NCBI RefSeq assembly: GCF_003018115.1
Contig: NZ_CP027457.1
DNA length: 64,000 bases
Strand: one strand, 5' to 3'
DNA from: Escherichia coli
GTDB taxonomy: Bacteria; Pseudomonadota; Gammaproteobacteria; Enterobacterales; Enterobacteriaceae
Shown here: piece after piece, positions 27,001 to 33,000 of the stretch
Numbering within the stretch: the stretch's first letter is position 1
Layout: every line of letters begins with the position of its first letter
Position numbers: made by a program

Positions 27001-30000
27001 TTAAGTAGCCAGCCCGAGGCGTATGAACATGACGGCGGGAACACTTTGTATAACAGCGCAGCAGGTTTTTAGTTCCGCGGCCCGGCGTTAAGGGTAAATG
27101 AGGTCAACATGGATACGCTCAATCTTGGCAACAACGAATCTCTGGTATGCGGTGAGGTTGACGATGGAATTTAAAGATTTACCAGTACCATTCCAGGAAA
27201 TGGCAGCGAATATAGTTCGTTCTCAACTGGCGACTCTTGACCTGAGTACCGTAGAAAAAGAAACCATCGATAATATATCCGGTAACGTGCGTCGAACCTT
27301 TATCGGGCTGTACGAAGAAAAGTGGCCATTCGGCGGACAAAATTCGCCTGAAAACAAGAATCAAGCGAATGATGAGAAGCTGAAACACGTTATCGCCTTA
27401 CTACTGGAAGATGCAAAACGTCTACAGCAACTGGAACCAAATGCAGGCACCGAAGCCCACATCTGGATTGCCATAGAATCACTCAAATGTGAAAGCGATG
27501 ATTATTTAAAAACCATAATTAAAACAACTCAGCTTTCTGAAGAGCTACCGAAGAAATTGCCATAATAATATGTTTTTCTTATAGAGGGGTTAGAAATATG
27601 GGCCAGCATTATAGCAGCCCCATATAACAGAAAGTATTTTAAATATTACGCCGTATCTTGTGATTGTTTTTTAATATATTCATACAAGCGCACAAGTTGT
27701 TTCAACTCTTCAAAGCACATCGCGGAATTTTCAATTTTTCCGGCGTTGATTAGTGCCAGAAGAGCCTGATGTGCGCAAGCATATGGATCATTACAGGGCT
27801 AATAATATCAACTTGCATATTATCCTCCATAGAGGTTCCGGGTTAATGATGGAGACCAACACGCTGTCACGTGTGGTCGTGCGCCGGACACGGATAAGAA
27901 TCCGGCACTGACAGTTTGCTGAAAGGATATTTCCCTGAAAAGTCAGGGCATAACACGAAAGCGCACGGCGAAGTTAGTCTCTCTGTACAGGTCGTCGTTA
28001 AATGTAATTCGATCATGCGCTTCCGGTTGTGGCAATCCGCGAAATGGCGCGGCGGTAAGTATGGCTGGGGCTTCCTCCATTGCTCCAGAAAATGCACCGG
28101 GTCGTCAGGTTGACCATACGCTTAAGTGACAGCCCCGCCACAATACCCATGTGTAGTATTTGGTGGCATCAGTTCTACTCCGTGACTGCTCTGCCACCCT
28201 TTTTAAAGTGAATTTTGTGATGCGGTGAATGCGGCTATGCGCACGCGGAACAGTTAAAACCGTAAAGTGGTCTTTTACGGGGCGTAACGGGCATCCTTCT
28301 GTATTCCGGCGTTAATTGTTAACTGGTTAACGTCACCTGGAGGCACCAGGCACCGCATCACAAAATTCATTGTTGAGGACGCGATAATGGAAACGTTATT
28401 ACCAAACGTTAATACGTCTGAAGGTTGTTTTGATATTGGCGTTCTGCTCAGTAACCGGGAGTTTACGGAAGATGCCATTAAGATGAGAAAATATGAACCT
28501 TATCTTCTCAATGATAATTCCATACTTTCCAGAATTGCCCTTCTTGAACTTGGTATTATCGGAGAACAGCAGTGACTTCAGCATTTGCACTGGTGATGAC
28601 CGTTTTTCTTATAACGGGTGAGCCACAAAATGTGATTACCGGAATTTATGACAGTAAGTCATCCTGCATTCAGGTAAGGGACGAACAAAAAATCCCCGGT
28701 GAATGCCTCCCGTTAAAAAAAGTATCGCTGAACCTGAATAACGAAATACCGGCTGGATAACCAGCCAGCCATATTAACACCATACCAACGGATTAAAAAT
28801 GCCAGCAATGGCAGGGATTCGTTCACCCTGAAATCTGTAATGAGGTTAAAACAAAATGAGTAAGGTCTTTATTTGCGCTGCTATTCCTGATGAACAGGCC
28901 ATAAAAGAAGATAGCGCTGTTGCGGTGGCCACTGCCATTGAAGCCGGTGATGAGCGTCGCGCACGCGCAAAATTTCATTGGCAATTTCTGGAGCAATTCC
29001 CTGCAGCTCAGGACTGCGCTTATAAATTTATTGTCTGTGAGGATAAACCCGGCATACCCCGCCCTGCCCTCGATTCCTGGGATGCTGAATATATGCAGGA
29101 AAACCGCTGGGATGAGGAGTCTGCTTCCTTTGTCCAGGTTGAGACTGAATCAGATCCGATGAACGTCACTTTTGACAAGCTGGCCCCTGAAGTACAGAAC
29201 GCTGTCATGGTTAAGTTCGACACATGTGAAAACATCACCGTTGATATGGTTATTAGCGCACAGGAATTGTTGCAGGAAGACATGGCAACATTCGACGGAC
29301 ATATCGTTGAAGCGTTGATGAAAATGCCAGAAGTTAACGCCATGTATCCGGAACTTAAGCTGCATGCCATCGGGTGGGTTAAGCATAAATGTAAGCCTGG
29401 TGCCAAATGGCCCGAAATTCAGGCAGAGATGCGCATCTGGAAAAAACGTCGCGAAGGTGAACGCAAGGAAACCGGAAAATACACGTCTGTTGTTGATCTC
29501 GCCCGCGCCAGAACCAATCAACAACACACTGAAAATTCAACAGGAAAAATCAGCCCGGTCATTGCTGCCATTCATCGCGAATACAAGCAGACATGGAAAA
29601 CACTGGATGACGAACTGGCCTACGCTCTCTGGCCTGGTGATGTGGATGCCGGAAACATTGACGGCAGCATCCATCGCTGGGCAAAAAATGAAGTTATCGA
29701 CAACGACCGCGAAGACTGGAAGCGTATCTCGGCATCAATGCGCAAACAGCCTGATGCCCTTCGCTACGACCGCCAGACTATTTTTGGCCTTGTCCGTGAA
29801 CGTCCGATCGACATTCACAAAGACCCTGTGGCACTGAACAAATACATTACTGAATACCTGACTACAAAGGGCGTGTTTGAAGATGAAGGAAGAAATCAGA
29901 GCGCAACTGATACTCTCTCGTCGCCAGTACCAGAAACTGATGCAGTGGAAACGGCAATTCCGGACAACGAAAAAACCGAATGCAAAGTGGAAGTCGAACC

Positions 30001-33000
30001 ATCTGTAGAGCGTGAGGGGCCGTTCTATTTCCTCTTCGCAGATAAGGACGGAGAAAAATACGGTCGCGCAAACAAACTTTCTGGTCTGGATAAGGCACTG
30101 GCTGCTGGCGCCACTGAAATCACAAAAGAAGAATATTTTGCCCGAAAAAATGGCACATACACGGGCTTACCGCAAAATGTAGATACCGCTGAAGATTCAG
30201 AACAACCAGAGCCGATAAAAGTTACCGCTGAAGAAGTAAACAAAATTATGCAGGCAGCCAATATCAGCCAGCCTGACGCTGATAAGTTGCTTGCTGCATC
30301 ACGTGGTGAATTTGTTGAAGGGATTAGTGACCCGAATGATCCGAAATGGGTTAAGGGGATCCAGACCCGCGATTCTGTGAACCAGAACCAGCATGAATCG
30401 GAACGGAACTACCAAAAAGCGGAACAAAACAGCCCAAATGCGTTACAAAACGAGCCAGAAACGAAACAGCCTGAACCAGTGGCGCAACAGGAAGTGGAAA
30501 AAGTCTGCACCGCCTGCGGTCAGACCGGCGGCGGCAACTGCCCTGATTGTGGTGCGGTGATGGGCGACGCAACATACCAGGAAACATTCGATGAAGAGTA
30601 TCAGGTTGAAGTTCAGGAAGATGATCCGGAGGAAATGGAAGGCGCTGAACATCCACACAAGGAGAACACTGGCGGCAATCAGCATCACGATAGCGATAAT
30701 GAAACTGGCGAGACGGCAGATCACTCAATTAAGGTGAACGGTCATCAAGAAATCACATCCACCAGCAGGACGTGTGACCATCTAATGATCGACCTTGAAA
30801 CCATGGGAAAAAATCCTGATGCCCCGATCATCTCAATAGGTGCAATATTTTTCGATCCGCAAACCGGAGATATGGGACCGGAATTTAGTAAGACTATCGA
30901 TCTGGAAACTGCTGGCGGGGTCATTGATCGGGACACCATTAAATGGTGGCTTAAGCAATCACGCGAAGCGCAATCTGCCATTATGACCGATGAAATCCCG
31001 TTAGATGATGCACTGTTACAATTGCGGGAATTTATCGACGAAAACTCCGGTGAATTTTTTGTTCAGGTCTGGGGAAATGGAGCCAACTTCGACAACACGA
31101 TTTTGCGCCGTTCATACGAACGGCAGGGGATCCCCTGCCCGTGGCGTTACTACAACGATCGCGATGTACGCACAATCGTTGAGCTGGGGAAAGCCATAGA
31201 CTTCGATGCCAGAACGGCTATTCCATTCGAAGGTGAGCGCCATAATGCACTTGATGACGCCCGTTACCAGGCAAAATACGTTTCAGTTATCTGGCAAAAA
31301 CTGATCCCGAGTCAGGCTGATTTTTAATGTTCAACCGTCGCCAGTTGTCGTTGATATTCTGCAACTGGCGCGTTCCGGAGTGATAGCCATGAGCGAACAG
31401 TACCTGATAACGCTCGACGAGTGGAAACCAAAACGGTTCAGTCTCCCAATAACAAACACTACCCTGGTGAAATACGGAAAACTAGGATACATCGTTCCAA
31501 GACCACAAAAAATTCGTGGGCGTTGGCTGATAGATCGCCGAGCAGTATTTGTTGGGCCTGGTGAAACGGGAATTGCGCCGGAAATTCATACTGGCGATGA
31601 TGATGCACTGAAGGAGATTTTAACTCATGTCACCGAGGCCACGAAAAAACAGCACTGACGTAGCCGGTCTTTACGAAAAGTTTGATCGCAGAACTGGCAG
31701 AGTTTACTACCAGTATAAAAATCCTGTGACTGGAAAATTTCACGGACTCGGAACAGACAAAGGTAAGGCAGAAAAAATCGCTTCCACAGCCAATCAGCGA
31801 ATAGCTGCAGCAGAAGCTGAATATTTCATGCGCAAAATTGATGAAAGTCCGTCAGCAACAAAACGTCGGGGTATCAGATTAAAGGCATGGGTTGATCGAT
31901 ATCTGAAAATACAGGACACGCGACTGAAAAATGGAGACATTGCAGCTACAACCCACAAAGAAAAAGTGCGAATGGCTGCATACCTGGTTTCCCGCCTGGG
32001 AAACCACCCATTGAAAGAACTGGAGGTAAGAGACTTTGCATTAATACTGGACGAGTGGATGGATAAAGACATGGTCAGCACAGCAAGAGTAAATCGCGGA
32101 TTATGGGTTGATATTTATAAAGAAGCACAGCATGCGGGAGAAGTTCCTCCTGGATGGAATCCTCCGGAGGCTACCCGTAAACCGATCCCTAAAGTGACCA
32201 GATCCAGACTCACCCTGGAAGACTGGCAAAAAATTTATAATGCAACGCCAGAAAAACACTTTATCCGTAACGCAATGCTTCTTGCGATTGTTACTGGTCA
32301 GCGCCGTGATGACATTTGCCACATGCGTTTTTCAGATGTATGGAATGGACATCTACATATAACCCAAGGAAAAACCGGAATGCGTCTGGCCTTACCTCTT
32401 ACGCTACGATGCGATGAAATTGGGGTATCGTTAAAAGAAGTTATTGATGGATGCAGGGACAGAATGTTGAGTCCATACCTAATCCATAGTAGGCACCAGA
32501 AACAACCAAAACCGATGAGTAAAGACAACCTGAGCGATTACTTCGCCAAAGCGCGAGATCTGGCTGGAATAATTCCACCAGCAGGAAAAACACCGCCAAC
32601 ATTTCATGAACAACGCTCCCTGTCAGAACGGTTGTACCGCGCACAGGGTGTCGATACAAAAACATTACTGGGACATAAAGTCCAGGCTACCACCGATCGC
32701 TATAACGATACCCGAGGTCAGGAATGGGTTAAGTTGGTTATTTAACAAACATCATATGGAATATCCGTCACCATTTCAGGAAAAAAGTGTTGTAAAATGC
32801 GTGCCCTGGTTTTGGGGAAAAGTTTTGGAGAGATTTTGGAGAAAGGAAAAAATTGAATAAATTCAAAATCCTGAAAGTGCCCCGCCTTGTGAATAAAAAG
32901 GTGGAACTCGAATGATCGGTCGACTGCTTCGCGGCGGTTTTATGACCGCTATCTACGCGTACCTGTATATCCCAATCATTATTTTGATTGTGAACTCCTT

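Follow-up and report, generated by a model that had tools for sequence, protein, structure and literature searches.

The 823-amino-acid protein encoded at positions 28856..31327 (plus strand, stop included) of the 64,000-nucleotide stretch of Escherichia coli DNA analyzed here (64 kb of contig NZ_CP027457.1; hereafter the window) appears from its sequence to be a derivative of RecE, in which a DEDDh exonuclease domain has taken the place of the PD-(D/E)XK nuclease and of the downstream genes recT, lar, and rcbA. It constitutes a head-swapped variant within a known family, and the sequence itself is already known, thousands of genomes listing it under the name "exonuclease"; the gene is very common in the prophages of E. 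coli, yet unstudied. Its product is most likely a DNA exonuclease that would process ends in the 3'-to-5' direction from the recombination-nuclease slot of its operon. The fuller reading that we favor, with a probability of about one half, is that of a RecE-family protein with an exchanged nuclease head, which would trim 3' strands at DNA ends without having an annealase of its own.

Gene Context and Missing Recombination Partners

The gene has an uninterrupted frame (ATG start, 823 codons before the stop, no internal stops), and this frame, together with the Pfam match of its C-terminal part, bears out the exonuclease gene that an earlier sequence-only reading had placed here. It lies in an Stx2c lambdoid prophage inserted at potC and is the final early-left gene ahead of xis/int, all the features described here being on the plus strand. 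The left border of the early-left region is formed by a cI-like repressor of the LexA family (26191..26835; an ORF also carried by the RefSeq annotation of a 99.8%-identical prophage), which is followed by a candidate early-left promoter of the pL or dicB type (26905..26933), proposed by consensus match alone with 10/12 hexamer positions matching. A terminator-like hairpin is seen at 26857-26879, upstream of this candidate. Next come the gene for the small RNA DicF, antisense to ftsZ, in the operon shared with the 823-residue ORF (28148..28199; Rfam RF00039, 62 bits vs. a gathering score of 48, E 4.5e-12), the cell-division inhibitor gene dicB (28387..28575), assigned by RefSeq annotation and by a conserved gene order that matches those of Qin, Tritos, and 813R8, and a ydfD-like gene of DUF1482 (28572..28760, phrog_1092). 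The excisionase gene (31389..31658) lies directly downstream of the exonuclease with no recT in between, and the prophage ends by the integrase gene (31627..32745; ORF and RefSeq annotation), beside potC (32912). PADLOC returned no match for the exonuclease or its neighbors, apart from generic HTH matches for cI, and a known defense system was consequently rejected.

Scanning all 64 kb of the window by tblastn (E up to 1) retrieved no homologue of lambda Exo, Bet, Gam, Kil, cIII, Ral, or N, the lambda Red queries giving noise only, outside the prophage; nor were RecT, RalR, RcbA, and KilR of Rac, or Erf, SSB, and Abc2 of epsilon34, found in the same 64 kb. The sole real match was the segment 454-591 of RecE, which falls within the 823-residue ORF. 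These results sustain the earlier claim that exo, bet, gam, and cIII-like ORFs are missing between cI and xis, and the whole-window search also rules out that Red-like, RecT, Erf, SSB, or Abc2 genes hide there as short unlisted ORFs. The same claim made for kil holds as far as a Kil homologue is concerned, but a functional counterpart does lie upstream in the form of DicF and dicB. The gene fills the recombination-exonuclease slot of an early-left operon in a window from which Red and RecT genes are absent. Among IMG/VR loci with the DEDDh-headed gene, RecT, Bet, and Erf were absent from all of the 70 that could be scored, and the gene always follows dicB or kilR and precedes one of at least three types of xis/int. 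The lack of an annealase, combined with a polarity opposite to that of RecE and lambda Exo, means that the protein cannot simply replace Red.

The RecE/YdfE Scaffold

The N-terminal 640 residues, which had been regarded as unassigned for the first 600, can instead be placed on sequence grounds in the RecE/YdfE scaffold family. Pfam domains YdfE_N (PF27430) and YdfE_C (PF27432) were detected on the 96%-identical representative of its protein cluster, and residues 474-625 are 68% identical to residues 454-591 of K-12 RecE, the only segment of the N-terminus that direct BLAST could align with that protein. Profile comparison was needed for the central domain: hhalign matched residues 182-343 with RecE 199-351 at a probability of 98% (E 1.4e-13, YdfE-type vs. 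RecE-type N-termini).

Three ordered domains are predicted in this region: an α/β and helical domain at residues 1-205 (28856..29470, pLDDT about 95, dN/dS 0.05-0.07), a helical domain at residues 240-345 (29573..29890, AlphaFold2 pLDDT 95-98), which is the part in common with the N-terminus of K-12 RecE (about 199-351), and a small β-hairpin plus helix at residues 385-440 (30008..30175, AlphaFold2 pLDDT 88-96). They are followed by a zinc ribbon (C551, C554, C562, and C565; 30500..30559) within the segment resembling RecE 454-591, the cysteines of which are conserved in nearly all aligned homologues covering those columns, and by a disordered acidic linker (residues 569-640, 30560..30775, pLDDT <50). 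The acidic character previously ascribed to the N-terminal region is real, with a pI of 4.69 and a net charge of -50 for residues 1-640 (4.65 and -63 for the whole protein).

Does this place the protein in a well-characterized family? Only in part, for domain analysis names the families, but these have no demonstrated role for either the scaffold or the head. Recombineering routinely relies on RecE/RecT, and full-length RecE, according to a review, boosts linear-linear recombination via its large N-terminal part, for which the review gives no known function (PMC11611040). The scaffold domains take their Pfam names from YdfE of the K-12 prophage Qin, a pseudogene that shares with our locus the order dicF-dicB-ydfD-ydfE and 82% DNA identity up to an IS2 element, but is truncated by this element and therefore headless; as a result, the intact protein has remained unstudied in the laboratory strain, from which it is absent because the Qin copy is broken.

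The DEDDh Head and Its Relatives

The C-terminal head (residues 641-823 plus stop, 30776..31327) is predicted to be an intact and active DEDDh 3'-5' exonuclease of the Rv2179c-like or DexA branch. Residues 642-813 match Pfam PF16473, the Rv2179c-like 3'-5' exoribonuclease domain, over positions 2-177 of its 177 (E 5.2e-67), and the DnaQ-like motifs noted in the sequence-only reading are indeed present: DLETMG (646-651), GANFD (742-746), and HNALDDA (796-802) give the DEDDh set D646, E648, D746, H796, and D801 (DxE of Exo I, D of Exo II, and Hx4D of Exo III). These five residues are invariant in a MAFFT alignment with T4 DexA, EcD, and the exonucleases of mEp460 and epsilon34 (gp34), aligning with D7, E9, D119, H186, and D191 of DexA. 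AlphaFold2 pLDDT is mostly 80-95 across residues 641-820, and the model has the RNase H-like exonuclease fold according to Foldseek, the best match being DexA (8kel, E 1.7e-9), followed by RNase T and oligoribonuclease. The idea that an internal start at Met644 (ATG, nt 30785) might yield a free head was dropped, since the only AGGA, 14 nt upstream, is unconvincing.

DexA, or exonuclease A, a phage 3'-to-5' DNA exonuclease, is the best match in both sequence and fold among solved structures, but it is only about 25% identical in the alignment and is a stand-alone protein of 227 residues with extra loops; its proposed 5hmC-recognizing residues W152 and D169 correspond to Tyr766 and Lys779 here, an equivalence based on the MAFFT alignment, in which the loop around D169 is gapped. 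EcD, or HREX (HAK9828821.1; Kang et al., NAR 2025), is likewise prophage-borne in E. coli and 38% identical, with DEDDh conserved, but, at about 190 residues, it stands alone without the scaffold and comes from a P2-like prophage. It has Ala, Trp, and Glu where our protein has Asp718, Tyr766, and Lys779, so that the tetramer-forming Asp (D90 of DexA), lost to Ala in EcD, is retained here as Asp718. The attempt to locate EcD in viral contigs by its primers gave no match and then a chance match (L013), which was discarded; it was found in E. coli genomes, in only 26 of 5426 by the 5' primer sequence. Closest to the head, with 55-59% identity, are stand-alone exonucleases of the temperate enterobacterial phages epsilon34 (gp34), mEp460, and F1055, which have 182-190 residues and lack the 640-residue RecE-type scaffold. 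In mEp460 and F1055 the exonuclease gene also lies directly ahead of xis/int, and in epsilon34 it is found between SSB and Abc2 within the Erf-SSB-exo-Abc2 recombination module; stand-alone homologues in 9NA and Vibrio phage 24 adjoin helicase, primase, or polymerase genes.

Exchange of Heads on a Common Scaffold

With respect to RecE (exodeoxyribonuclease VIII of the K-12 prophage Rac), the protein has the same early-left slot upstream of xis/int and a homologous scaffold, and near-identical scaffolds occur with either head. It differs in that the 5'-to-3' PD-(D/E)XK domain, starting from about RecE 589, is absent, a DEDDh 3'-to-5' head standing in its place; neither Pfam nor BLAST gave any match in it to DUF3799 (PF12684, RecE 606-866). 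Moreover, recT, lar/ralR, and rcbA follow recE in Rac, whereas none of them is present here and xis comes directly next, and the protein scores 288 bits against the NCBIfam equivalog of RecE (PRK09709), far from its cutoff of 1269.

The DNA homology to both types of recE, represented by L007 and K-12 recE, ends at the same base, nt 30722. The mosaic junction (30722/30723) thus falls at codon 622/623, inside the disordered linker. N-termini 92-93% identical to ours are also found in proteins of 900 residues that have the RecE-type PD-(D/E)XK domain DUF3799, and downstream of the gene for one of these lie recT, lar, DUF1187, xis, and int. Reciprocally, an N-terminus of K-12 RecE type (96% identical) occurs with a DEDDh head and without recT, and the fusion of scaffold and DEDDh head is present on at least three scaffold backgrounds. 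Other scaffold variants carry a third type of head, followed by a Mu Gam-like gene; this head has only weak matches to Pfam Rad52_Rad22, and no match to solved structures or NCBIfam, so that its reading as a Rad52-like annealase is suggestive rather than established. A RecT-family domain, which seems to be fused, is present in one diverse homologue.

Proposed Mechanism and Alternative Explanations

According to the reading that we favor, residues 1-622 form a scaffold of RecE/YdfE type, combining the three ordered domains and the four-cysteine zinc ribbon with a disordered acidic tether, while residues 641-823 provide a 3'-to-5' DEDDh head where RecE has its 5'-to-3' nuclease. Upon induction, the early-left promoter, which the repressor controls, would probably drive transcription of the gene together with dicF, dicB, and ydfD. 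The scaffold may then deliver its tethered head to the ends of DNA, so that the head would strip 3' strands or 3' tails from linear or branched DNA in phage replication and recombination. As the prophage has no annealase of its own, any recombination would need host RecA or the annealases of co-resident prophages. DexA and EcD are DNA exonucleases, the former taking part in the repair of double-strand breaks in intron homing (PMC12153337), and DNA rather than RNA would be the substrate of the head.

EcD introduces a different possibility, rather doubtful in our view, namely that the protein is an exclusion nuclease with a head that would degrade modified DNA from T-even-like phages when these superinfect, while sparing host DNA. 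EcD is homologous to the head over the whole domain (E 8e-40) and itself lies in the early region of a prophage; it is reported to digest T4 DNA, to spare unmodified double-stranded DNA, and, when carried on a plasmid, to protect E. coli from T4 (PMC12153337), and a benefit to the host would agree with how very common the head is in E. coli. However, the residues that define the 5hmC-specific, dimer-locked state in the same work are not those found here by alignment, PADLOC has no matching model, the position of the gene suggests a repressed early-left operon rather than one expressed in the lysogen, and fusion to a RecE scaffold would be left unexplained. A somewhat weaker candidate makes the scaffold the main actor, binding DNA ends or RecBCD in an anti-RecBCD or end-protecting role that would replace the missing Gam and Abc2, with the head as an interchangeable accessory. 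The absence of Gam and Abc2 homologues from the prophage agrees with it, as do the constraint on the scaffold, tighter than on the rest of the protein (dN/dS 0.05-0.07 for residues 1-230), its retention while PD-(D/E)XK, DEDDh, and probable Rad52-like heads change, and an acidity like that of DNA mimics. The Mu Gam-like gene following one variant cuts both ways: it points to the biology of ends, but also suggests that end protection does not come from the scaffold. In neither sequence nor fold, besides, does the scaffold resemble Gam, Abc2, Ku, or a DNA mimic of any kind, and much of its acidity sits in disordered linkers.

The names given to the domain by Pfam and NCBI would rather make the protein an RNA exonuclease, trimming or degrading RNAs such as 3' ends of the operon transcript or short fragments in the lytic cycle. 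The Pfam family is named for the exoribonuclease Rv2179c of Mycobacterium tuberculosis, RNase T and oligoribonuclease come right after DexA as structural neighbors, and the gene is downstream of that for DicF, whose transcript undergoes processing. This function seems unlikely, for the closest characterized relatives in sequence (EcD at 38% and DexA) act on DNA, Rv2179c was not retrieved at E up to 1 from the sequences of solved structures, the phage contexts of the head are those of DNA replication and recombination, and what the domain replaces on its recombination scaffold is a DNA nuclease. Finally, the high mosaicism of lambdoid genomes, a junction in a disordered linker, and the IS2-cut pseudogene of Qin might suggest an accidental in-frame fusion carried without function. 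This is very improbable and already largely refuted by selection and prevalence: every segment, head included, is under purifying selection (dN/dS 0.05-0.46), the catalytic residues are intact, the fusion recurs on several scaffold backgrounds, and the DEDDh head has 8108 copies in 4068 of 5426 complete E. coli genomes, the cluster of the 823-residue protein comprising 23183 member sequences.

Prevalence and Implications

In evolutionary terms, the gene presents a scaffold under strong purifying selection while its catalytic head exchanges, and the natural set of head-swap variants could serve for probing what the scaffold does. One speculative extension, to which we give a low probability, is that the RecE/YdfE scaffold is a dedicated platform targeting DNA ends, or else RecBCD or SSB, which enterobacterial prophages fit with a nuclease of either polarity (5'-to-3' or 3'-to-5') or with a Rad52-like annealase as exchangeable heads, the DEDDh form being the commonest RecE-like protein of E. 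coli with an undescribed, annealase-independent job. If so, candidate jobs would be to protect or mature phage DNA as it replicates in RecBCD+ cells, or to keep out competing phages. The gene may also have a bearing on how prophages are induced or recombine with one another, or on the exclusion of phages. The RecE/RecT pair, scored as recE-nuclease plus recT, occurs in 1750 of the same 5426 genomes, less than half as many as contain the DEDDh-headed form, of which a Shiga-toxin-producing strain can have as many as seven copies.

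Domain architecture of the 823-aa protein

The 823-aa ORF (28856-31327, plus strand) encodes an acidic protein (pI 4.65, net charge -63), and the sequence-only reading was correct as to the ORF itself, its length, its acidity and the DnaQ-like motifs quoted from its C-terminal part. Residues 642-813 match the Pfam family Rv2179c-like (E 5e-67), and the catalytic residues of the T4 exonuclease DexA have their aligned counterparts in D646, E648, D746, H796 and D801. The AlphaFold2 model of this DEDDh head is confident, and the solved structure it resembles most is DexA (8kel), with RNase T and oligoribonuclease next. 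Stand-alone relatives of the head, with 55-59% identity, lie between SSB and Abc2 within the Erf recombination module of epsilon34, immediately 5' of xis/int in mEp460 and F1055, and, in 9NA and Vibrio phage 24, next to genes for helicase/primase or polymerase. Every one of these settings points to replication and recombination of DNA.

The N-terminal 640 residues, which had been considered unassigned, turned out to be RecE/YdfE-family sequence. Residues 474-625, comprising a zinc ribbon (C-x2-C...C-x2-C) and an acidic stretch, are 68% identical to residues 454-591 of K-12 RecE, the segment just N-terminal of the RecE nuclease domain. Profile comparison of YdfE-type with K-12 RecE-type N-termini aligns residues 182-343 to RecE 199-351 with 98% probability, and the recent Pfam families YdfE_N and YdfE_C are both found on a cluster representative that is 96% identical to our protein. 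AlphaFold2 predicts three confident domains (residues 1-205, 240-345 and 385-440), the zinc ribbon at lower confidence, and disordered linkers at 346-384, 439-458, 500-548 and 569-637. This scaffold family is narrow, forming 253 clusters at 50% identity among 1.8 billion representatives.

Exchange of heads on RecE-type scaffolds

A scaffold 92-93% identical to that of our protein is found in 900-aa proteins carrying a RecE-type PD-(D/E)XK domain, and on the contig of one of these recT, lar, a DUF1187 gene, xis and int come next, at the Rac attachment site. The reverse combination also exists: a scaffold that shares 96% identity with the N-terminus of K-12 RecE bears a DEDDh head 99% identical to ours, with xis and int directly 3' and without recT. 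The DEDDh head occurs on a third scaffold background as well, again without recT. When the window is compared with both recE types, DNA homology ends at one common base, 30722, which corresponds to codon 622/623, inside a disordered linker, and to approximately RecE residue 589, at which the minimal active RecE fragment starts. The RecE nuclease domain has been delimited as residues 564-866 (PMC11611040).

Since different portions of the gene are shared by other phages, it is a mosaic at several linker positions. In phage Tritos the common sequence ends 44 nt beyond the stop codon, where different xis/int genes take over; in phage vB_EcoS-813R8, the sister gene (4194-6635 of locus L004) shares residues 471-823 at 98-100% identity, whereas identity over the first 470 residues falls to 16-36%, so the scaffold, too, has been exchanged piecewise at linkers. 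The architecture is secure: a RecE-family scaffold with a tethered DEDDh 3'-to-5' exonuclease that replaces the RecE nuclease, accompanied by the loss of recT.

The scaffold has further partners. Many homologues end in a different domain of 270 aa that PHROGs label "exonuclease" (7838, 2489), among them proteins P0129, P0137, P0140, P0153, P0167 and P0186 (see also locus L012, 4001-6717). This third head carries a conserved motif, KKSLTDAxKKALSxLGF, within a Rad52-like signature (KKSLTDAxKKALSxLGFSADV), and five of the six members give weak matches to the Pfam family Rad52_Rad22, sequence evidence which suggests that it is probably an annealase; the PHROG label is probably wrong. In one such locus the next gene is Mu Gam-like, and one other scaffold homologue contains a RecT-family domain within the same protein.

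Distribution and selection

The head region is covered by 70 of the 80 closest IMG/VR loci; each of the 70 carries the DEDDh head, and its offset hardly varies (55 nt in most, up to 84). These loci pair with at least three integrase types, and none of them contains RecT, Bet or Erf in flanks of up to 7 kb on each side. DNA for the DEDDh head is present in 4068 of 5426 complete E. coli genomes, amounting to 8108 copies with up to seven per genome; recT together with the RecE nuclease occurs in 1750 of the 5426. No segment reaches a pairwise dN/dS of 0.5, and the lowest values (0.05-0.07) are those of residues 1-230; selection therefore maintains the whole protein along with its scaffold. The gene is real, intact and very common.

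The early-left operon

The stretch 14000-45995 of the window is 98.9% identical to a segment of E. coli JNE082640 in which an Stx2c lambdoid prophage is integrated adjoining potC. On the plus strand, the cI-like repressor gene (26191-26835) is followed by a terminator-like hairpin and a promoter-like site (26857-26933), both consensus matches only, then by a 155-aa ORF (27098-27565; 134 aa in RefSeq) that lies between this candidate early-left promoter and the sRNA DicF (28148-28199; Rfam, 62 bits). The 155-aa ORF belongs to PHROG 1363, a family without assigned function, and had no match in PADLOC. Next come dicB (28387-28575) and a ydfD-like DUF1482 gene (28572-28760), directly 5' of the exonuclease gene, and then xis (from 31389), int (from 31627) and host potC (at 32912). 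Given this DicF-dicB-ydfD-like group, the operon is of the Qin/Rac type with division inhibitors, not of the lambda type; K-12 Qin likewise has the order dicF-dicB-ydfD-ydfE, its ydfE being interrupted by IS2.

Searches of the 64 kb by tblastn with Exo, Bet, Gam, Kil, cIII, Ral and N, and with RecT, RalR, RcbA, KilR, Erf, SSB and Abc2, returned no match; the sole match to recombination-gene queries is the RecE segment within the 823-aa ORF. The reported absence of exo, bet, gam and cIII holds, as does the position of the gene in place of a Red module, even if the N-terminus was misjudged. The companion statement that no kil-like ORF is present needs to be qualified: there is no Kil homologue, but the division inhibitors dicB and DicF play the part of lambda Kil in the equivalent position.

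Functional interpretation

What would such a protein do? Most likely it trims the 3' ends of DNA once the prophage has been induced, a role that we infer from homology and context only. The protein would act exonucleolytically, in the slot occupied by the recombination nuclease of other lambdoid phages; with no annealase and reversed polarity, it cannot simply stand in for RecE or lambda Exo.

Among the alternatives, an exclusion nuclease resembling EcD (HREX) ranks first, though we consider it improbable. The structure of T4 DexA was solved in a 2025 paper, which proposed that EcD, a homologue from E. coli, serves as a defence against T4 through its digestion of 5hmC DNA (PMC12153337). We located EcD through the published cloning primer: it is a stand-alone gene (4989-5570 of locus L014; E. 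coli S19-651, NZ_CP075852.1) in the early region of a P2-like prophage, next to genes for a ParE-like toxin and a Dam methylase. The word "prophage" is absent from the text of the paper (PMC12153337). Only 26 of 5426 complete E. coli genomes contain the 5' primer sequence. EcD is 38% identical to our head, and the three positions defining the 5hmC-specific state (PMC12153337) all differ in the alignment with our protein: DexA D90 is Ala in EcD and Asp718 here, W152 is Trp and Tyr766, and D169 is Glu and Lys779.

Slightly less probable is a role centred on the scaffold, either against RecBCD or in end protection. An RNase activity, recalling the structural matches to RNase T and oligoribonuclease, seems less likely still, and a fusion without function is very unlikely, as the protein is under selection. 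Trimming of DNA 3' ends remains our preferred reading, and the gene stays within known kinds of phage biology. Our literature search found no description of this protein or of a RecE/DEDDh swap. The protein belongs to a known family, in which it is a variant with an exchanged head; it already carries the generic annotation "exonuclease" but has never been characterised. According to a 2023 review, the N-terminal part of RecE has no known function, even though linear-linear recombination is improved by full-length RecE (PMC11611040), and the gene offers a natural way into the study of this part.

Other features of the prophage

Just 3' of DicF and into the start of dicB, Rfam gives a sub-threshold match to the sRNA STnc100 (28197-28419, plus strand; 36.8 bits vs. 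a gathering score of 47). By the 98.9% map to NZ_AP027206, 15716-16956 and 17047-17298 on the minus strand correspond to the genes for the Stx2c subunits B and A, with three tRNA genes ahead of them, Arg-tct, Arg-tcg and Met-cat according to ARAGORN, the third being Ile in RefSeq. Within the prophage region, the replication genes are separated from the gene for antiterminator Q by a ParD/ParE toxin-antitoxin pair (20106-20668, plus strand; mapped from 6107-6669 of the related locus L001).
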